DNA of 64,000 nucleotides from an uncultured Candidatus Saccharibacteria bacterium. Its GTDB lineage: Bacteria > Patescibacteriota > Doudnabacteria > UBA920. Location of the stretch: positions 45,113-109,112 of the forward strand of contig CAZFQP010000001.1 of the NCBI GenBank assembly GCA_964520505.1, given 5' to 3'. Made by a program: the position numbers and the translations under genes. Under the pieces are notes generated by a model. That model made no database searches, was not told the origin of the DNA, and was given only the letters and a program-made list of their open reading frames with translations. Below, one piece after another: positions 2,113 through 40,817 of the stretch (within the stretch, counting starts at the first letter, position 1; every line of letters starts with the position of its first letter).

Positions 2113-3183
2113 ATGCCAAAGTTTAGTCTTTTTTCACAAACCTTGTCGGCCTTGGGGCTGCATTTAACCTCTACTTCCATGAGGTTAGTTTTACTTCACA
2201 AAAAAGGGAAGGAAACAGTGGTGAAGGCTTTTGCCGATGTTGCTTTGCCTAAAGGATTAATGGTTAACGACGAAATTGTCGACGCTAAAACTTTTGAATT
2301 TTTACTTAAGCAGGCTTTGGCAAAACCAAACTTTGGTAAGTTTGATACGAGCTATGCGGTGGTCAGCTTGCCTGAGTCCAAGTCTTTTGTTCGGGTGGTA
2401 CAAATTCCCATAATGAGCGAGACGGAAGCGGAAAGCGCGGTGCCGTACGAAGCAGAAAGTTTTATTCCTTTGCCGATTGATCAAGTCTATTTGGACTGGC
2501 AAAAAATTGGAGAGACAGGGGAAAAAATGGATATTTTAATGGTGGCATCGCCAAAAGAATTTGTGGAAAAATATTTAACTATTTTGCAGCGGGCAGGTAT
2601 TACGCCGTTAGCTTTGGAAGTTGAATCTCAAAGTTGTCACCGCGCGTTAATTGCATCCGGCAGTAAGGAGACGTCTTTAATTTTAGACGCTGCTGCCATT
2701 CGTAGTAGTCTGCTTATGATAGAACAAGGAAATTTACAGTTTACTTCCACCATTCCCATTGGCGGCAGTGCCTTTACCGAAAGTATCGCCAGATCTTTGG
2801 GCGTTTCCAGCGCCAAAGCCGAAGAGATAAAAAGAAAAGTCGGGCTTTCCAATACCGCCGAATATCCAAATATTAAAACCTCCTTGCTTCCGGTGTTAAA
2901 TAATTTGACGGCTGAAGTTAAAAATATTTTAAAATTTCATGGTGAGCATTCAGAAAAACAGGTTGAGCGAGTTATTTTGTGCGGTGCCGGCAGCCGGTTA
3001 AAAAATTTGCAGGAATTTTTGGCCCCACAATTGGCCGAGGCAGGAGTAAATAAGGTAGAAATAGGTAATCCCTGGCAGAATGTGGAAGGATTAAAAACCG
3101 TACCTATGGATGCAAGCGGCGCTTTAGGTTTTGTTGCGGCTATTGGGCTCGCCATGAGAGGGGTAGATTATAAGGTCTATTAG
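2113..3183 (+). CDS. pilM: Type IV pilus assembly protein PilM (actin-like ATPase fold)
   Basis: 356 aa; actin-like segments (SLILDAAAIRSSL, IGGSAFTESIA) and position immediately before pilN. Confidence 0.7.
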   Translation: MPKFSLFSQTLSALGLHLTSTSMRLVLLHKKGKETVVKAFADVALPKGLMVNDEIVDAKTFEFLLKQALAKPNFGKFDTSYAVVSLPESKSFVRVVQIPIMSETEAESAVPYEAESFIPLPIDQVYLDWQKIGETGEKMDILMVASPKEFVEKYLTILQRAGITPLALEVESQSCHRALIASGSKETSLILDAAAIRSSLLMIEQGNLQFTSTIPIGGSAFTESIARSLGVSSAKAEEIKRKVGLSNTAEYPNIKTSLLPVLNNLTAEVKNILKFHGEHSEKQVERVILCGAGSRLKNLQEFLAPQLAEAGVNKVEIGNPWQNVEGLKTVPMDASGALGFVAAIGLAMRGVDYKVY

Positions 3184-3192
3184 ACATATAAC

Positions 3193-3750
3193 TTGATTAT
3201 GAAAATAATTAATTTACTGCCAAAAAATCAGCAAACAGAACTACGCTATCAAGCGATGCTACATCGTCTATGGGCTGTATTCGGGGTGTCCTTGGTCAGT
3301 TTCGCAGTGGTTTTTTTAGCTCAGTTCGGAGTAAAGATTTTTTTACAAGTGGAAGCTAAAATTTACTCAGCACAAATAACTGAGCTGCAAGGCCAAGTTA
3401 ACAAACAGAATAACGCGGAAATCAAAAGCAAAATAAAACAAATTAACGATACTATCTCAGACTTTAAAACTCTTTCAGACAGTTCTCCAAAATTATCTCA
3501 GGCAATCGCTGCGTTTGCCAAACTACCGCCACCGGGTATAAAAATAAATAACGTTTCCATAGACGCTAGCCGAAAGGTCATAAATATAAACGGTCAAGGT
3601 GCAACCCGTGAAGCTATAATTGAGCTATATAACAATATTCACAGAGATAGTAATTTTTATAATGTAGATTATCCATTGGAAAATGTAGTTAAGCCGACAA
3701 ATCAATCTTTCCATTTTACTTTTTATATGAAGGACGAACTAATAAAATAA
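3193..3750 (+). CDS. pilN: Type IV pilus assembly protein PilN
   Basis: N-terminal INLLP motif, a single TM, then a coiled coil, as in PilN. Confidence 0.65.
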   Translation: MIMKIINLLPKNQQTELRYQAMLHRLWAVFGVSLVSFAVVFLAQFGVKIFLQVEAKIYSAQITELQGQVNKQNNAEIKSKIKQINDTISDFKTLSDSSPKLSQAIAAFAKLPPPGIKINNVSIDASRKVININGQGATREAIIELYNNIHRDSNFYNVDYPLENVVKPTNQSFHFTFYMKDELIK

Positions 3751-3760
3751 TATACTGGGA

Positions 3761-4312
3761 ATGAATAATTGGCCAGCTAAAAATAAAATATTCGGCCTTT
3801 TGGTATTATGGCTAGGGTTAATTACCTTGATGTTTTTTAGTTTGTTTGGAATTTTAGACCGCCAAAATCTAGCTAATCTTGAATCTATGGCTCAGCAGAG
3901 AAAAGATCTTGCAATGCTTAAAGCTGAGAGGGAAAGTTTTACCAGAGCTCAACAGGATTTAGATTTATTGGCAAAGAAACAATATCAGCCGGAAGACTTT
4001 TTTTCGAAAGATGTCACTTTGGTTAAAGAGCTTAGAATTTTAGAAGATTGGGCCGACAGGTTGGGAGTAAAAATTCAGATTTCCGGAATAAGTGGAACTA
4101 TTGCTAGTGTGCCCAAGGCCAAAACCCAAACTTCTTTAGCGGTAATTCAGTATGGGATAAGCATTAACGGAGAGTTTAGCCAAGTATTAAATTATATTCA
4201 GGTTTTAGAAAATCTAAGTTTTATTACCAGTATTAGTTCAATGAATTTAAATAATTCGGACAGGGGCAACGTCTCAGCCGGCGTTACCGCCAGTTTATAT
4301 TTAAGGAAATAA
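3761..4312 (+). CDS. pilO: PilO-like pilus assembly protein
   Basis: 183 aa, N-terminal TM, coiled coil, position after pilN. Confidence 0.5.
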   Translation: MNNWPAKNKIFGLLVLWLGLITLMFFSLFGILDRQNLANLESMAQQRKDLAMLKAERESFTRAQQDLDLLAKKQYQPEDFFSKDVTLVKELRILEDWADRLGVKIQISGISGTIASVPKAKTQTSLAVIQYGISINGEFSQVLNYIQVLENLSFITSISSMNLNNSDRGNVSAGVTASLYLRK

Positions 4313-4313
4313 T

Positions 4314-4622
4314 ATGCCCTCTCTCAGCGGAACAAGTCTAATCGCATTAAAAAATAATTTTAATAAGTTGGGTAAAAATTTTTCCTGGCTATTTTACCTT
4401 ATTTTGATTATTGTTTTGGCGTTTGAAGTTATTGAAGTTCAAAAATCGGTTGAAATAATGCTTGAGTCCAAACGCGAGCCGGCAGTGGTGGTTAAAGATA
4501 AAGGAGTAAAAATAAATTTTGACGATTATAATGCGGTAGTAAAAAAAATTGAGAATGGTCAGATCTATCAACCCCCTCAGAATAACGTTAGCAATCCATT
4601 CCAAACGACTATTAGTGAATAA
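4314..4622 (+). CDS. Small membrane protein at the end of the pilus operon (possible PilP-like)
   Basis: 102 aa, one TM; start overlaps the pilO stop (ATATG). Confidence 0.35.
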   Translation: MPSLSGTSLIALKNNFNKLGKNFSWLFYLILIIVLAFEVIEVQKSVEIMLESKREPAVVVKDKGVKINFDDYNAVVKKIENGQIYQPPQNNVSNPFQTTISE

Positions 4623-33329: not shown

Positions 33330-35240
33330 ATGGAGGATCAAAAGCAAAAACTTGTGTCTAAAATAGAGCAAGTCCGCAAAGACTTTCCCAAAGCCGGCAT
33401 GCGCTGGACCGAAGAGGAGAGTAATTTACTGAACGCGGAATACAAAAAATGTTTAGAGGAAAATTACGATTTTGAAAGTTTTCTAAATTCTATGGCGCAG
33501 CGTTTCGGTCGCCGTCCGAACGGAATTCGCGGACGGCTGGCTTTGAGTTTCCCCAACATTCCAGGTTGGGATTACGAAGCGGTAAAACAGCGCGATGAAG
33601 AGTATAAAAAACAGAAATTGGAAATTGCCAATAATGCCGCCAATCCCCGTACGGACGAAATTTTAATTCACAAATACGAAAAGTACGTTTCGGCAAAAAA
33701 TGAAACTTTCAGGAAATTTATTTTACGGGTGTCAAAGCTAAGCGGGCTGCAAAGAAGCATAGTCCGTCTTAGGCTGCTTCAACTTGTTGGCAATGTCGTG
33801 GAGTATGCGCAGGAAGATGTTGAGGAACATCAGCCGTCAAAAAAACAGTACAGAGAAGAAGAAACTGAAGAAATAGATATATCTTCCAACCCGGAAATGC
33901 TGGCAAGTTTTAAGTTAATGGAAGAAACCCGCGAGAACATTTTTCTAACCGGGGAAGCGGGTACCGGAAAATCCACCTTACTGAAATATTTTAAACATCA
34001 CACCAATAAAAATACCGTGGTGCTGGCTCCAACCGGCGTGGCTGCGGTAAATGTTGGCGGCCAAACCATTCATTCCTTTTGTGGTTTTGGCCCGGACATT
34101 ACCATTCATCGGGTAAAAAAAGTTTCTACCGGCGGCGGCAAAAAAGAATTGTTGCAGCGCTTGAGCACGGTAATAATAGACGAAATCTCCATGGTGCGCG
34201 CGGACCTGCTCGACTGCGTGGACAGATTTTTAAGATTAAACGGGCCGGCCGGAAATTTGCCGTTTGGCGGCGTACAAATGATCTTTATTGGCGACCTTTA
34301 CCAGTTGCCGCCTATTGATAAAGACTTTACCAATGGCGGGTTATTTGCGGAATATAAAAGCCCATATTTTTTTGACGCCAGGAGTTTTTTGGGCGGCAAT
34401 TTTAAATTAATGGAATTAAAGACTGTTTACCGCCAAAAAGATCGGGCGTTTTTGGAAATTTTAAATGCTGTGCGCAACAATGCGGCCAGCACCGAACATT
34501 TGGAAGTATTAAACAGCAGGAGCGAACAGGAGGGCGATAAATTTACCTTTGAGCAGTTTGCTGTTTATTTAACGCCAACCAATGCCCGCGCTGCCCAGGT
34601 TAATGACTATTATTTAAATCAGCTGCCCGGGCAAGCAAAACTTTTCCAAGGTTTTGCTTCAGGCAAGCTGGAAGGCAAAACTACGCCCGGAGAATCCGCC
34701 TTAAAACTTAAAGTTGGCGCACAGGTAATGATGCTAAATAATGACCCAAAGAAACGTTGGGTTAACGGCACAATGGGAAAAGTGTTGGGTTTTGTAAAAT
34801 CCCGCGATGTAATGGATGACGCATTGGAATATTTGCAAGAGGACAGCTCGGAAGACGGTTTTAAATTTCCGGAAGGGAATGACTTGTTAATTCGCGTGGA
34901 GCTGGAAACCGGAGAGAAAGTTTATGTCGGGCGGCATACTTGGGAAATGTTTAATTTTTATTTGGATAAACACACACAAAAAGTGGAATCTAAAACCGTA
35001 GGGGAATTTACCCAGTATCCGCTAAAGCCGGCCTGGGCTTTAACCATTCATAAGAGCCAGGGAAAAACTTTTGATAAAGTTTATGTAGATTTAGCCGGAG
35101 GCACCTTTGCCCATGGTCAGTTGTATGTTGCGCTTTCCCGCTGCCGAACTTTAGGCGGGCTGTATTTAAAGCGCCCGGTGGTGCAGAGCGATATTTTGTT
35201 GGACAATCGGATTGTTGAATTTTTATCGTTTAAAAATTAA
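33330..35240 (+). CDS. Pif1/RecD-family SF1B DNA helicase with about 190-aa N-terminal extension
   Basis: Walker A IFLTGEAGTGKSTLL, Walker B VIIDEISMV, C-terminal LTIHKSQGKTFDKV motif typical of Pif1/RecD/TraA-like helicases. Confidence 0.8.
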   Translation: MEDQKQKLVSKIEQVRKDFPKAGMRWTEEESNLLNAEYKKCLEENYDFESFLNSMAQRFGRRPNGIRGRLALSFPNIPGWDYEAVKQRDEEYKKQKLEIANNAANPRTDEILIHKYEKYVSAKNETFRKFILRVSKLSGLQRSIVRLRLLQLVGNVVEYAQEDVEEHQPSKKQYREEETEEIDISSNPEMLASFKLMEETRENIFLTGEAGTGKSTLLKYFKHHTNKNTVVLAPTGVAAVNVGGQTIHSFCGFGPDITIHRVKKVSTGGGKKELLQRLSTVIIDEISMVRADLLDCVDRFLRLNGPAGNLPFGGVQMIFIGDLYQLPPIDKDFTNGGLFAEYKSPYFFDARSFLGGNFKLMELKTVYRQKDRAFLEILNAVRNNAASTEHLEVLNSRSEQEGDKFTFEQFAVYLTPTNARAAQVNDYYLNQLPGQAKLFQGFASGKLEGKTTPGESALKLKVGAQVMMLNNDPKKRWVNGTMGKVLGFVKSRDVMDDALEYLQEDSSEDGFKFPEGNDLLIRVELETGEKVYVGRHTWEMFNFYLDKHTQKVESKTVGEFTQYPLKPAWALTIHKSQGKTFDKVYVDLAGGTFAHGQLYVALSRCRTLGGLYLKRPVVQSDILLDNRIVEFLSFKN

Positions 35241-35251
35241 GCTTCGGGCCT

Positions 35252-36085
35252 ATGTGCCCGAAACAAAAAAAATTAACAAGAAACAAAATGAAAAATATAT
35301 ACAGATTCGGCCTACTGGCCATCGTGATATTTTTTACACTGCCTCAAATTTCGCTGGCTGCGGGGACAAAAACCATAACCGGTTATGTTCAAAAGGTCAG
35401 CGGCAGTACAGTAGTTTTTAGTAATAGCAACGGCGCCAAATATTCCGCAGAGGTCGGCCAGGCAACCCTAATTAGGAAAAATGGGGCGGCAATGCAGCTT
35501 GCGGAAATTTTGGTAGGTGACAAGGTCGAGGTTAAAGGAACATTGTGGGGTGACAACAGCATTAGCGCAAATGTTTTGCGCAATATGTCGCTGTATACGC
35601 ACAACAGCAGCTTTAGCGGAAAAATTACCGAAATTGACCCATGGAGCCAGAGTTTTACTCTGCAAAGCTCCAAGTATGGCAATCAAACCATTAAGACCGA
35701 CAGTCTTACTGTATTTAAAAAGAACAGCTCCGCCGCAACTTTTAAAGATTTAGAGCCGGGGATGAGTATGGCAATTAAAGGCGCTTGGGACCGCACCACC
35801 ACAATTATTGCGGCCAGAGAAGTTAGGGGAACCTTAAGGCTAATAAATATAGATTTTACCGGGACGCTCACCATGAAAAGTGATAGCGCCATAACCGTAA
35901 TCGGCAACGGCAATGTAATTTACGGGGCAGATATTACCAAGGCGAAGCTGCAAAATAAAAATGGTAAGACTTTAAGTTTATTACTTTTTAATTTGGGTGA
36001 TACAATTAGAGTACAGGGCAAGCATGTTTCCGGCAGCGTTAAAGTTGTTGGCGAAACAATAAAAGATTTATCCGTAACCAAATAA
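35252..36085 (+). CDS. Secreted beta-rich hypothetical protein
   Basis: Signal peptide; repeated beta-strand-like segments. Confidence 0.45.
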   Translation: MCPKQKKLTRNKMKNIYRFGLLAIVIFFTLPQISLAAGTKTITGYVQKVSGSTVVFSNSNGAKYSAEVGQATLIRKNGAAMQLAEILVGDKVEVKGTLWGDNSISANVLRNMSLYTHNSSFSGKITEIDPWSQSFTLQSSKYGNQTIKTDSLTVFKKNSSAATFKDLEPGMSMAIKGAWDRTTTIIAAREVRGTLRLINIDFTGTLTMKSDSAITVIGNGNVIYGADITKAKLQNKNGKTLSLLLFNLGDTIRVQGKHVSGSVKVVGETIKDLSVTK

Positions 36086-37539: not shown

Positions 37540-37615
37540 TGGGGCGGCTATCGGGAATTGAACCCGAATTCTCGCTGCCACAGAGCGATGTAATAACCAT
37601 TATACCATAGCCGCC
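37540..37615 (-). tRNA. tRNA-His (anticodon GTG) with encoded G-1 and CCA
   Basis: Minus-strand read: G-1 plus GCGGCTA acceptor pairing with TAGCCGC, discriminator C, CCA; anticodon loop CTGTGGC; T-arm TCGGGTTCAATTCCCGA. Confidence 0.85.
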
Positions 37616-37682
37616 ATATAACCCCTTTTGGGGTAAATAACAAATAGCAAATTCCAAATATCAAAGGGAACACCCGCCGGAG

Positions 37683-39209
37683 GCGGACTGACCACTATAA
37701 TTAAATTAATGGGTCAAAAAAACTCTTACACAGATTTGTAAGAGCCCTATTACTGTCTGCTGTGTCAGACAATAAATTTATTCAATTGCTTATGCTATTA
37801 TAGCTGAAAACAAGGAAGAGGTCAAACTGAAAAACAGCGTAAAAGGAAACCGCGGAACCTTTCGGAACCGCGGTAAAGTAGCTGTTTAAGGCTTTGTCAG
37901 TCTTTATTGATTTCGACTTCGGGAGCTGCGAAAGCGTTCTGTATCGCTTGCCAGAGGTTGCTTCCGCGGCCGGTCTTGGTCATGTACCACATCCACGCCC
38001 TGTGTTCTTTGACACCTTTGGGCTTGGCGATAATGCGCGTACTGCAACAGTTCTCGCCGTTGGGGAATTGTGACGGAGTGGTTTCGAACATGAACCCACG
38101 CCAACCCCATTGAATGGTTTCGCGGCCTTCGGAAGAACGCTTTACCACGTCTTTGGGGTGTTCGAGTTCAGCCAGGCCTTCGAGCTGGAAGACAACTTCT
38201 TCGCCTTCCTGCCAAACGTCAAAGGTGGAGCCGCGACGTACCCAATAGTCAAGGTTACTGGTCGACATCGTGTCGCCCGTGAGATAGTGAGTGTACTTCT
38301 TGCCGTAGACTTCGTTGTACGGACGACCTCCCGCCAAATAATCTTCATCGAGGTGAAGGAGTGCTTCTTCCACGTGCGGATGCTCGCCGTAACCCTTCAA
38401 CTCCTTGTTCAATTCGAGACGCACGACACGCAGACCGCCGCCGGACGAAAAGGCATGCATTCTGCAACCTTCCCGTAGTGCCTGGTGGACACCTGCAAGT
38501 TCGGGTGTTTCCGTAGGCGGGTGCAGATAGGCCTCCTCGCGTTCTTTCTTTTCGCGTTCCGCTACTTCGATAAGTTCGGGAAAAGTCATGTCCTGCGGAC
38601 GCCGATATACAATGACGTCCACTTCTGCGCCGACTCTATTGGTTCCGAACAACATACCCATGTCTTCGCGCTGCTTGTCGGGAGCTTCATACCAGTCGAC
38701 AGCGGTCACCCACATGAGGTAACTGACATCTCCCGGCTTGACCATTTGAAAAACTTCCTTGGAGAACTTAGTGAAAGCTTCGCCCCGTTTCCAAGTCAGT
38801 CGCGCGACAATGCGGTCGTCGTGGTCGACGGCACACACGAACTGCTGACGTGTTCCGCGTCGTCCGTCATTGTGCTTTCCGAGTCGTTCGGTGTAGGCGT
38901 TGTCGCCGTAGTCGATATTGTTCGCCTGCAAATGCATGGCGGTCGTATCCGCGCGCTGCACATGGACGTTCATTACCGGCCACCGCAATTTAGGCTCTTG
39001 CCTGTTCTTCCGCCAACGATACTCGTAGCGAATAACACCCAACGGCGGGAAATTCTCGATAAGCTGTTCCAGCTTAGACTGACGTTTCATTTTGCCTCCT
39101 TGGCATTCCGCCAAAGCATTCTAAACCCGCACATTCCGCACGGGTTGTGTTGATATCAGACAGCACACGCTGCCTAAAATATCCCTGTACTAGCGGACTA
39201 ACTACTATA
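37683..39209. mobile_element. About 1.5-kb GC-rich inserted cassette flanked by 17-bp imperfect direct repeats (GCGGACTGACCACTATA / GCGGACTAACTACTATA, 15/17), adjacent to tRNA-His
   Basis: GC about 55% against a background of about 38%; enteric-like codon usage (CTG, CGT, GGC, ACC); own SD and terminator; direct repeats read from sequence at 37683-37699 and 39193-39209. Confidence 0.45.
37897..39090 (-). CDS. Cargo protein of the GC-rich cassette (397 aa, unknown function); start assigned to the ATG preceded by AAGGAGG (MKRQSKLEQ...)
   Basis: Long stop-free ORF with balanced amino-acid composition. Perfect SD AAGGAGGcaaaATG; downstream hairpin CCGCGGUUCC-GAAA-GGUUCCGCGG plus U-tract. Possible HUH-like order (RVVRLEL..EHPHVEE..VYGKKYTHY), speculative. 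Confidence 0.55.
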   Translation of the reverse strand: MKRQSKLEQLIENFPPLGVIRYEYRWRKNRQEPKLRWPVMNVHVQRADTTAMHLQANNIDYGDNAYTERLGKHNDGRRGTRQQFVCAVDHDDRIVARLTWKRGEAFTKFSKEVFQMVKPGDVSYLMWVTAVDWYEAPDKQREDMGMLFGTNRVGAEVDVIVYRRPQDMTFPELIEVAEREKKEREEAYLHPPTETPELAGVHQALREGCRMHAFSSGGGLRVVRLELNKELKGYGEHPHVEEALLHLDEDYLAGGRPYNEVYGKKYTHYLTGDTMSTSNLDYWVRRGSTFDVWQEGEEVVFQLEGLAELEHPKDVVKRSSEGRETIQWGWRGFMFETTPSQFPNGENCCSTRIIAKPKGVKEHRAWMWYMTKTGRGSNLWQAIQNAFAAPEVEINKD

Positions 39210-39257
39210 CCGCTAAACTATGCAATAGTCAAGGTTTGGTAAAAAGGGGATTTAAAC

Positions 39258-39294
39258 AAAAAAACCCTCCCGAAATAAATCGGAAGGGTTTTAT
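39258..39294. terminator. Terminator hairpin AAACCCTCCCG-N8-CGGAAGGGTTT downstream of the surface-protein gene
   Basis: 11-bp stem (one mismatch) with flanking A/T tracts. Confidence 0.55.
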
Positions 39295-39305
39295 ATTGTT
39301 TGTGT

Positions 39306-40817
39306 TTAATCGGCTATTCCGCCAGTGGTTAGAGTTGTCAGGTCTTGGGCCTGAACTTGCAAAACACTGTTTAAGGACCAGCCATTTTTCGCTAAAACGC
39401 TCATGCTAGGGATGCCATAGAGTTGTCCGCCCTTAACTACATAAATAGTGTGTCCCGGACCTTTTAATAGAGTGCCGTCGGCAAAAGTTGCCGGTGAACC
39501 TAAAGGCAAAGTGTTTAAGACAGAAGCGGGAATTTCTTTTATTTCGTTAAAGTTTTTTCTCCAGGAACGGAAAACGTTAATGGAGGGGATTGGCTGCAGT
39601 TGGCCGTTGGTTACTAAATAAACAGTCGGATTGCCTGCAACTTTAACCACAGTGCCGTTAGGCAGTCCGGCCAAAGTGCTGCTGGAGATGCTGCTTATCG
39701 GAGTTGTGCTCGGAAGAGTTATGGTAACAATTGGTGTTGGAATGTTGTCGTCATCTGAATCGCCAACCGGTCTGCCAACACGGAAATGTTTAAACCAATC
39801 TTTGCCAATTTCTTTTACATCGCGGAATTTTTTGCCTCTGGCATTAAAAATTGCGGCCGAGGTAAAAGGTCTAAGGCTGCCGTTTATGACAAGATAGATT
39901 GTATTGTCGCCCGGGAATTTTACTAACACGCCATTCGGCAAATCAACATTAGTTGGAATTGGCGTTGGGGTTACGGTAGAAGCCGAAACGGTAATGGCAT
40001 TGCTGGTGGCGGCTGTAAGGCCGGAGCTTTGCGCAACCAGTTGAATAATTCCGGTTTGGTTGTAAGACAAGTTTGTAAAACTTGCTACGCCGCTAGCTGT
40101 GTTGATATTGATTTGCCCGGAAATTGCACCCAAAGGAGAGGAACTAATTACCGAAGGTGTCAGGTTAATGGCGCGGTTATTGTCGGAATTTACTAAATTG
40201 CCAAATTGATCCTGCACAACTACTGAAGTATTAAATAAAGTACTACTGGCAGTGAGAGTGGCAGGAGGCTGCTGGCTAAAGCCTAGTTTTGTAGCCGTTC
40301 CTGGAACTTGAGTCAAGTTCACGAAAGCGGAAGATGAACTAATTCCGGAAACGCTTCCACTACTTAAAGTAATTTTACCGGTTGCGGCCAACGGCGAGCC
40401 ATTGGCTACTTTTACTTTAATCGGGTTTACTGCGCCAATAGTAATGCTTCCGGCGGAAGTGGAAGTGGCGGTAACATTAATGCTGAAGTGAGTTGAGTCA
40501 ACATAACTCACAGTACTGGAGCCGGTAAGTCCTGCTCCGGCGTAAACCACATCGGTCGAGCTTGTGGTATCCAGAACAAATCCTGCGGGCAAAGCCCAGG
40601 TATATGTGCCAATGGCAACATCAGCGGCTGTGCCTTCGGTTACTATTAATGCCGGCAAGGCTACGGAAGCTCCTGTTTTGCTGTCTGAGCTGACGTTTAC
40701 TGTCGTGGCTGCCGGAATGCTAGCCGAGGCCAATGCTGTTTGCAGCGTTTGGGGCAGTATCTGTCCCAAAAGCATTAACATAGTTGCCATTATTATGGCA
40801 AATGATTTTTTTTGCAT
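39306..40817 (-). CDS. Ser/Thr/Ala-rich surface protein with signal peptide and three C-terminal roughly 50-aa repeats (putative cell-wall-binding modules)
   Basis: N-terminal signal MQKKSFAIIMATMLMLLG; low-complexity S/T region; three repeats of the pattern LPNG.vVK.pG..TvYLV.nGqL.pIpS..vf...k.f.eIKEI. Confidence 0.55.
   Translation of the reverse strand: MQKKSFAIIMATMLMLLGQILPQTLQTALASASIPAATTVNVSSDSKTGASVALPALIVTEGTAADVAIGTYTWALPAGFVLDTTSSTDVVYAGAGLTGSSTVSYVDSTHFSINVTATSTSAGSITIGAVNPIKVKVANGSPLAATGKITLSSGSVSGISSSSAFVNLTQVPGTATKLGFSQQPPATLTASSTLFNTSVVVQDQFGNLVNSDNNRAINLTPSVISSSPLGAISGQININTASGVASFTNLSYNQTGIIQLVAQSSGLTAATSNAITVSASTVTPTPIPTNVDLPNGVLVKFPGDNTIYLVINGSLRPFTSAAIFNARGKKFRDVKEIGKDWFKHFRVGRPVGDSDDDNIPTPIVTITLPSTTPISSISSSTLAGLPNGTVVKVAGNPTVYLVTNGQLQPIPSINVFRSWRKNFNEIKEIPASVLNTLPLGSPATFADGTLLKGPGHTIYVVKGGQLYGIPSMSVLAKNGWSLNSVLQVQAQDLTTLTTGGIAD

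Follow-up and report, generated by a model that had tools for sequence, protein, structure and literature searches.

A recent single-gene insertion in a Doudnabacteria-like genome carries a member of an uncharacterised protein family and a tandem-hairpin leader, a candidate cis-regulatory RNA

The gene described here was found in a stretch of 64,000 nucleotides of contig CAZFQP010000001.1 from an uncultured Candidatus Saccharibacteria bacterium. This whole stretch is referred to as the window, and positions are counted from its first letter. The gene encodes a protein of 397 amino acids (aa) and lies on the minus strand, 39090..37897 from its ATG. It is the sole credible open reading frame (ORF) within 37615-39305, in agreement with the first-pass annotation of this DNA; no support was found for two antisense ORFs (38110-38478 and 38485-39153), which that annotation had already set aside as artefacts. 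The gene is a recent horizontal insertion into a Doudnabacteria-like genome. It belongs to an uncharacterised family distributed mainly among Patescibacteria and DPANN archaea, and it is preceded by a conserved tandem-hairpin leader, which we regard as a candidate cis-regulatory RNA. On the minus strand the order of the features is the terminator of a 503-aa gene, promoter P1, the leader, the Shine-Dalgarno (SD) site, the ORF, its terminator, promoter P2, a two-hairpin element and tRNA-His, with 283 nt between the 397-aa gene and the tRNA gene. Positions 39232..37841 make up one self-contained monocistronic unit, comprising promoter, structured leader, SD site and ATG, ORF and terminator. The features of the region are the following.

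39261..39292, minus strand: terminator of the native upstream 503-aa gene (39306-40817); left limit of native DNA
39204..39232, minus strand: promoter P1 of the 397-aa gene, TTGACT-17 nt-TATAGT (consensus scan, 10/12 matches)
39193..39209, plus strand: direct repeat copy 1, GCGGACTAACTACTATA; read on the minus strand, the -10 box TATAGT and the first transcribed bases
39091..39197, minus strand: 5' leader of about 107 nt (transcription start inferred from the -10 box; fold; covariance-model match)
39175-39158, minus strand: 5' hairpin of the leader, not conserved (fold)
39153-39087, minus strand: tandem-hairpin motif (covariance-model match, 58.7 bits)
39124..39146, minus strand: leader hairpin 1, AACCCGUGC-GGAAU-GUGCGGGUU (complementary stems in homologues)
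39098..39116, minus strand: leader hairpin 2, CUUUGGC-GGAAU-GCCAAGG (overlap of 4 nt between 3' arm and SD site)
39095..39101, minus strand: SD site AAGGAGG, 4 nt before the ATG (sequence)
37897..39090, minus strand: ORF, 397 aa and stop codon (homologues; AlphaFold2 model)
38521-39090, minus strand: N-terminal domain, about residues 1-190 (split set by short homologues)
37900-38520, minus strand: C-terminal domain, about residues 191-397 (split set by short homologues, which match profile positions 190-391 only)
37841..37873, minus strand: intrinsic terminator of the 397-aa gene, CCGCGGUUCC-GAAA-GGUUCCGCGG then UUUCCUUUU (fold, -17.5 kcal/mol)
37797..37825, minus strand: native promoter P2, TTGACC-17 nt-TATAAT, outside the insertion (11/12 matches; counterparts in the related loci L112 and L111)
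37714..37790, minus strand: native small-RNA-like element (first hairpin with ACACAG loop; second a terminator hairpin with U tract)
37669..37710, minus strand: window-specific stretch of 42 nt with repeat copy 2 (37683-37699) and a GC hairpin (three-way alignment)
37540..37614, minus strand: tRNA-His (GTG), native (ARAGORN; Rfam, 62.5 bits; conserved in L111 and L112)

The expression signals agreed in the main with the first-pass annotation. AAGGAGG is present at 39101-39095, with a spacer of 4 nt and not the 5 nt given before, and the gene does have its own terminator with a GAAA loop and U tract. The stem of the latter (37873-37850) contains a 2x2 U/U internal loop, and UUUCCUUUU forms the tail. 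By inspection, a similar promoter was seen 60-110 nt 5' of the ATG in other full-length homologues.

The composition of the unit is foreign to the contig, as comparison of windowed GC and codon usage with the remaining sequence confirmed. The ORF has 54.3% GC, against 40.1% in the remainder of the window. GC at third codon positions (GC3) is 0.623, while the 44 other long ORFs have 0.403 (standard deviation 0.047, maximum 0.511), giving z of about 4.7; at first positions (GC1) the values are 0.608 for the gene and 0.464 for host ORFs. The host uses TTA at 35% and the gene not at all (0%), CTC rises from 4% in the host to 33%, GTC from 12% to 47%, and AGA falls from 22% to 6%. The GC-rich block reported earlier is thus real, but 37620-39260 was too wide: it spans 37841-39200 at 53.7%, and the flanks (37615-37840 and 39201-39305) are at 34-37%. 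The codon usage does not resemble that of E. coli, as had been supposed, since C-ending codons are abundant and CTG makes up just 19% of Leu codons. Nor are the expression signals of enteric style; the SD region and leader belong to the family itself and are conserved in homologues from Patescibacteria.

GC rises abruptly, by about 14-20 points, at both edges of the block, and the SD site and promoter are strong consensus sequences, which would fit an assembly chimera or a contaminant, for instance an enteric or vector fragment joined to a contig of the candidate phyla radiation. The annotation had raised this possibility. We consider its probability negligible. A Logan contig of 2475 bp (L001, run SRR12487046) is 100% identical to window 37581-40055, crosses both junctions and reaches native sequence on both sides; it was assembled separately from the record of the window, and if the reads are shared it tests the assembler rather than the data. 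In addition, the homologues come from Patescibacteria, DPANN or metagenomes and none from enterics, the leader is that of the family, and the codon usage, as said, is not E. coli-like.

The 503-aa neighbour protein places the host among Doudnabacteria-like Patescibacteria. In the related locus L112, where this protein is 65% identical, the gene order is shared (P-type ATPase, ferric reductase, 503-aa gene, tRNA-His, MsrB, DUF5666, PIF1 helicase) and there is no 397-aa gene between the common neighbours. L112 is an empty site: the terminator of the 503-aa gene is followed after no more than 5 nt by a TTGACT-17-TATAAT promoter, the small-RNA-like element and tRNA-His. In L111, a closer relative (75% identity), the gap holds three unrelated genes at 2360-4470, encoding a 322-aa protein without Pfam match, a NUDIX protein and a 115-aa protein, and is followed by the unit of small-RNA-like element and tRNA-His. 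The 322-aa gene, at the corresponding spot, was considered as a possible family member and proved to be unrelated to the family. A third sequence, L114, with a 97% identical 503-aa neighbour, stops inside the terminator of that gene, before the insertion spot. By inspection, a terminator hairpin is found at the matching position after the orthologous 503-aa gene in both L112 and L111.

The gap that separates the 503-aa gene from the small-RNA-like/tRNA-His unit is accordingly a variable spot, a hotspot of gene gain and loss. Since the spot is variable and L112 is empty there, the 397-aa gene of the window is an insertion, and the proposal of a recent horizontal event made from the window sequence is borne out. 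The boundaries follow from a three-way alignment of the window, L111 and L112, in which P2 and the small-RNA-like element are kept in the relatives without the 397-aa gene. Because both are native, the inserted unit is approximately 39235-37841, from P1 through the terminator. No defence or mobile-element genes were found around the insertion; the PIF1-family helicase and DUF5666-like genes, which lie 3' of MsrB (window 33330-35240 and 35252-36085) and are syntenic with L112, are ordinary neighbours.

Elsewhere the family follows the composition of its hosts. GC3 of family members ranges from 0.13 to 0.84, and its median difference from the host, taken over 55 loci, is +0.003; none of the 11 other full-length genes reaches z = 2 against its host. 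The copy in the window is therefore an unusual recent transfer and not the typical state of the family. A systematic GC excess of the family was rejected, as GC3 tracks the host and overall GC is just 2.7 points higher; this surplus we attribute to amino-acid composition, since GC3 shows none. Among the short forms, some deviate from host composition in one direction or the other, which suggests occasional transfer.

One suggestion had been that the unit is a minimal mobilised cassette bracketed by direct repeats, with tRNA-His as its landing site. In such a reading it was integrated site-specifically beside the tRNA gene, and the 17-nt repeats are attachment sites or a target-site duplication. 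The repeats are real. The copies at 37683-37699 and 39193-39209 agree at 15/17 positions, a match between the flanks that was reached in just 2 of 300 shuffles; both are in window-specific sequence, the spot is variable among relatives and the tRNA gene is nearby. However, copy 1 coincides with the -10 box of P1 together with its start region, and copy 2 is within the window-specific 42-nt stretch 37710-37669, 3' of the small-RNA-like element. The interval between them includes P2 and that element, i.e., native DNA conserved in relatives without the gene, and the repeats therefore do not bound foreign DNA. They do not overlap tRNA-His and are not derived from the tRNA 3' end, and no further copies were detected in the window or the fetched loci, except in L001, where the DNA is identical. 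The unit does not abut tRNA-His, as was stated before, because the native promoter and the element of about 75 nt intervene. Over the whole family, a tRNA gene lies within 600 bp at 6/88 loci, roughly as tRNA density predicts, and tRNA adjacency was rejected as a trait of the family; the count gives no support to tRNA-His as a landing site. No integrase, transposase, recombinase domain or other credible ORF was found in 37615-39305, and the homologue clusters are essentially single-copy. Taken together, this makes a mobile cassette very improbable. The repeats could be a duplicated promoter core or the relic of an earlier rearrangement.

Two short insertions distinguish the window from its relatives at this place. 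The 42-nt stretch (37669-37710) holds a hairpin, CCGCC-UCC-GGCGG, beside repeat copy 2, and a second window-specific insertion relative to L111 and L112, at about 37629-37642, holds the hairpin ACCCCAAAAGGGGU. Both sit between the terminator of the small-RNA-like element and tRNA-His.

The small-RNA-like element itself, about 75 nt with two hairpins, was found together with a consensus promoter directly 5' of tRNA-His in each of three related genomes of Doudnabacteria-like bacteria (window 37714-37825, minus strand; L112 6565-6672; L111 4455-4546). Its ACACAG loop is conserved and three of its stem pairs covary by compensatory changes. Rfam 15 gave only noise for the element (LPR17 on the opposite strand at 14.4 bits, where the gathering score is 98), and the other weak Rfam matches in the region fall on terminators. 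Possible identities are a small RNA and a processed leader belonging to the tRNA-His precursor.

A word-based search returned 61 homologues. In a profile search the count was 591 representatives (clusters at 50% identity), and for 246 the E value was below 1e-30. Of the 150 with the best scores, which were listed, some 30 have both domains in full length, like the protein of the window, and most others are of about 200 aa and match profile positions 190-391 only. Hits in species-representative genomes belonged to Patescibacteria (17/25), archaea (5/25) and other metagenome-assembled genomes (MAGs; 3/25). The Patescibacteria include Saccharibacteria, Moraniibacteriota, Buchananbacteria, Komeilibacteria, Falkowbacteria, Parcubacteria and Paceibacterota. 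The archaeal hits are from Woesearchaeota, Nanoarchaeota/Nanoarchaeia and one MAG named Euryarchaeota, so that 4/5 are named as DPANN lineages. IMG/VR contained six relatives, all of the short form. A third architecture, of about 150 aa, keeps positions 192-305 and at some loci also 364-391 (L019, L022, L024-L029, L084, L086, L096 and others); it is without the internal C-domain segment of about 60 residues at positions 306-363, and several of its members are in DPANN archaea.

The protein could not be assigned to a family from the sequence of the window, and the wider search bears this out. No consistent match was found in Pfam, NCBIfam, PHROGs or PADLOC for the window protein, 33 full-length, 80 short and 10 N-terminally extended members, and PDB sequence searches with the protein and two profiles gave nothing significant. 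Searches of the literature found no description of the protein family or of the leader motif. AlphaFold2 modelled the protein with a predicted local distance difference test score of 93.8, and for the modelled fold no solved counterpart was found in the PDB. The C-domain, of about 200 aa, is the widespread part. It has many invariant polar and glycine residues, among them a Ser/Gly loop and His, Glu, Asp, Arg and Tyr residues, and in the model it holds an alpha-beta-beta-beta-alpha module with the fold of a double-stranded RNA-binding domain (dsRBD). The dsrm profile (PF00035) matched none of the 33 full-length or 80 short members. The N-domain, of about 190 aa, is rarer and begins with a basic arm; the median net charge of the first 40 residues is +5. 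Internal duplication of the N- and C-domain was considered and rejected (hhalign probability 0.2%). A homology search with the N-domain only returned no matches, and as the self-match was likewise missing it was uninformative.

It had been suggested that the protein serves a defence-type function, and a HUH-like order of motifs was guessed at. Accessory cargo of this kind, an anti-phage defence or conflict gene or a HUH-type nuclease, would fit the patchy distribution, the compositional outliers in both directions that hint at repeated transfer, the variable spot and the six short-form relatives on IMG/VR contigs. The evidence speaks against both. Several homologues have A, Q or S in place of H237 (in YGEHPH), many have N, D, S or Q in place of H239, and no match was found to a HUH fold of the Rep/relaxase type with its helix Tyr, or to any nuclease fold. 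PADLOC-DB 2.0 gave scattered single-member hits at E > 0.004 and no consistent hit in 33 members, and PHROGs gave none. There are no recurring defence genes among the neighbours, NUDIX being the only recurrent one, and most hosts carry the gene among housekeeping genes and at their own composition. We judge a role of this kind improbable.

NUDIX genes were counted at 9/165 ORFs adjacent to family genes and at 1/507 others (Fisher p = 2e-5), an enrichment resting on seven loci of partly related lineages. These neighbours (PF00293, position +/-1; L016, L020, L023, L098, L100, L103 and L121) all pass the Pfam threshold, and several are co-directional with the family gene and abut or overlap it. 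In L098 and L103 NUDIX genes are found on both sides, the downstream one overlapping the end of the family gene. All-against-all BLAST of the neighbours yielded no cluster in more than three loci and no broadly conserved neighbour. The variable spot of L111 also contains a NUDIX gene where the window has the 397-aa gene. Because of the NUDIX neighbours, the Ser/Gly loop and the invariant His/Glu/Asp/Arg/Tyr residues, the C-domain is suggested to be a nucleotide- or RNA-end-related enzyme or ligand-binding domain.

There were two main observations from comparison of the leader across the family. Firstly, a tandem-hairpin 5' leader was present at 22/22 full-length loci examined, while the search 5' of short-form genes returned no matches. 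The second observation was that the structure of the leader is kept and most of its sequence is not. Both hairpins are topped by G-C and C-G pairs and a GGAAU-like loop, with GGGAU, GGAAC, AGAAU and GAAAG as loop variants, whereas the lower stems are wholly different in sequence between homologues with complementarity retained. All 15 leader sequences fold individually into two hairpins. Double changes were seen in 8/10 pairs of the hairpin 1 stem, and compensatory variants of hairpin 2 in L032, L037, L124 and L125. Hairpin 2, (U)UGGC-GGAAU-GCCAA, continues straight into GGAG(G); in 14/16 aligned leaders the distance between the end of its 3' arm and GGAG is 0-1 nt, and in L009, L034 and L032 additional anti-SD pairing makes it longer.

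A covariance model (R1) was built from the 15 leader sequences. It recovered the leader of the divergent locus L075, on which it was not trained, with 24.4 bits, and out of sample it matched all of six newly fetched full-length loci at E < 1e-3, each match ending at the start codon. In the model-fitted alignment double compensatory changes occur in 13/17 pairs, and 81.9% of the cells are paired, compared with 26-42% when the partners are slid; none of 500 shuffles reached the observed values, although this alignment leans towards the structure to which it was fitted. G-U pairs are frequent in the stems, which points to a structure on the mRNA strand and so argues against a DNA operator. R1 found no second copy of the motif in the 64-kb window, and Rfam 15 had no match over the leader up to E = 10. 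A conserved structure with covariation support thus overlaps the ribosome-binding site, as would be expected of a translational operator. We regard the leader, which is tightly coupled to the full-length genes of the family and has no Rfam entry, as a candidate cis-regulatory RNA.

At two loci the leader bears on gene calls. In L126 (3001-3177) the start annotated for P0036 (453 aa) probably lies 58 codons 5' of the true one; the leader motif ends at the ATG 3175-3177, where homology to the family begins. In L021 (74-1198), from a MAG labelled Pseudomonadales, a full-length homologue seems to be split: the ORF 74-718 covers profile positions 3-177 only, a tblastn match spans residues 6-394, and the leader motif is intact 5' of it. 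The gene may be frameshifted or a pseudogene, or the sequence may contain an error.

In our explanation the encoded protein would bind both leader hairpins by means of its N-domain, which would be needed for this, and would block access of the ribosome, so that translation is subject to feedback. Across phyla, and in the transfer to the window as well, the leader has accompanied the gene, so that its partner must be either the protein itself or a universal factor. We favour an autogenous operator because the motif is gene-specific, travels with the gene, sits on the ribosome-binding site and occurs only with the N-domain. On these sequence patterns, the chance that the leader is a translational operator bound by its own product may come close to even. 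The leader-binding factor, the direction of regulation and the biochemical activity are each inferred. The operator may also mimic the cellular RNA target of the protein, whose task in the cell would then be to bind, or act on, RNA hairpins of the C-GGAAU-G-capped shape.

A leader without self-regulation would be a target of a CsrA/Rsm-type host regulator, a small riboswitch, or a structure that stabilises the mRNA or masks the SD site. GGA in hairpin loops and in the SD site is the classic arrangement of CsrA/RsmE targets, and GGA is indeed present in both loops and in the SD site here; according to the folds, hairpin 2 covers part of the SD site even without any protein. For CsrA, however, the divergent L075 leader has GAAA-type loops without GGA, and conservation extends to the flanking G-C and C-G pairs, which is more than CsrA requires. 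Two loops of 3-5 nt offer no obvious ligand pocket for a riboswitch. More generally, the motif is specific to the family; many Patescibacteria phyla have retained it, it has survived horizontal transfer, the window contains no other copy, and its presence correlates perfectly with the N-domain in the loci counted above. We find these alternatives unlikely, and prefer the autogenous operator.

Several points weigh against that preference and should be kept in view. The trans-acting factor is deduced purely from sequence. The dsRBD-like module lies in the C-domain, yet genes with only the C-domain are without the leader; moreover, the module is without the canonical basic motifs, the N-terminus of its helix 2 being HPHxEE. 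The conserved loops contain the GGA that is also a hallmark of CsrA/Rsm targets, and in the minimum-free-energy fold of the whole leader of the window the 5' end pairs with part of hairpin 2. The NUDIX neighbours could signal a small-molecule or nucleotide enzyme without an RNA target. As to the donor in the transfer, the closest homologue is just 54% identical. For the explanation as a whole, combining a transferred unit, a two-domain family and a tandem-hairpin leader with translational feedback, we consider the chances even.

A further-reaching proposal, which we find doubtful, is that the family is a new class of hairpin-loop-specific RNA-binding proteins or enzymes. The N-domain would read GNRA-like pentaloops, the leader would mimic the substrate, and the C-domain would be catalytic or ligand-binding and coupled to NUDIX enzymes. 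Such coupling in some lineages would indicate chemistry on RNA 5' ends or nucleotide derivatives, and the class would belong to episymbiotic Patescibacteria and DPANN and have a fold not matched by any solved structure.

The horizontal transfer is in itself an ordinary event, and the main interest moves from the cassette first flagged to an unannotated family and its candidate cis-regulatory RNA. Small genomes of Patescibacteria and DPANN are rich in unannotated genes. For this family there are now several handles, i.e., a confident structural model without a solved relative, an RNA motif outside Rfam that is tied to one architecture, and a link to NUDIX genes. If autoregulation holds true, the leader and protein would be a new pair of operator and RNA-binding domain, and would give an entry to the cellular RNA target in organisms that are not cultured alone.

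Autoregulatory translational operators, such as the leaders of ribosomal-protein (r-protein) genes and the phage MS2/PP7 coat-protein operator at the replicase start, are among the closest known systems. In these, as here, the ribosome-binding site is adjoined or overlapped by a conserved hairpin specific to the gene, the loops are conserved and the stems covary, and the element travels with the gene. In our case, however, the hairpins are a tandem pair capped by C-GGAAU-G and absent from Rfam 15, the protein is unrelated to r-proteins or coat proteins, and binding is a prediction. The dsRBD of Rnt1p reads AGNN tetraloops, and lambda N pairs with the GNRA-like pentaloop of boxB. Compared with an Rnt1p-type dsRBD, the family has no Pfam dsrm hit and no canonical basic motifs, its predicted module is part of a 200-aa domain without PDB counterpart, and the leader tracks the N-domain and not the dsRBD-like module. 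Type III toxin-antitoxin systems of the ToxIN kind have tandem identical RNA repeats and then a terminator upstream of the toxin gene; this type was considered and rejected, as the hairpins of the leader number just two, their stems are unrelated, and no terminator precedes the ORF. Islets and integrative elements next to tRNA genes resemble the unit in that their composition is foreign, the locus is variable and close to a tRNA gene, and an imperfect direct repeat flanks them, but the unit is a single transcription unit of 1.4 kb without integrase, and its repeats are not derived from the tRNA and have native DNA between them. The leaders of CsrA/RsmE targets likewise have two hairpins with GGA loops upstream of the gene, one of them beside an SD site that contains GGA, whereas the leader described here is specific to one family, is transferred together with the gene, is conserved beyond GGA in its GC-GGAAU-GC context, and in L075 is kept without GGA.

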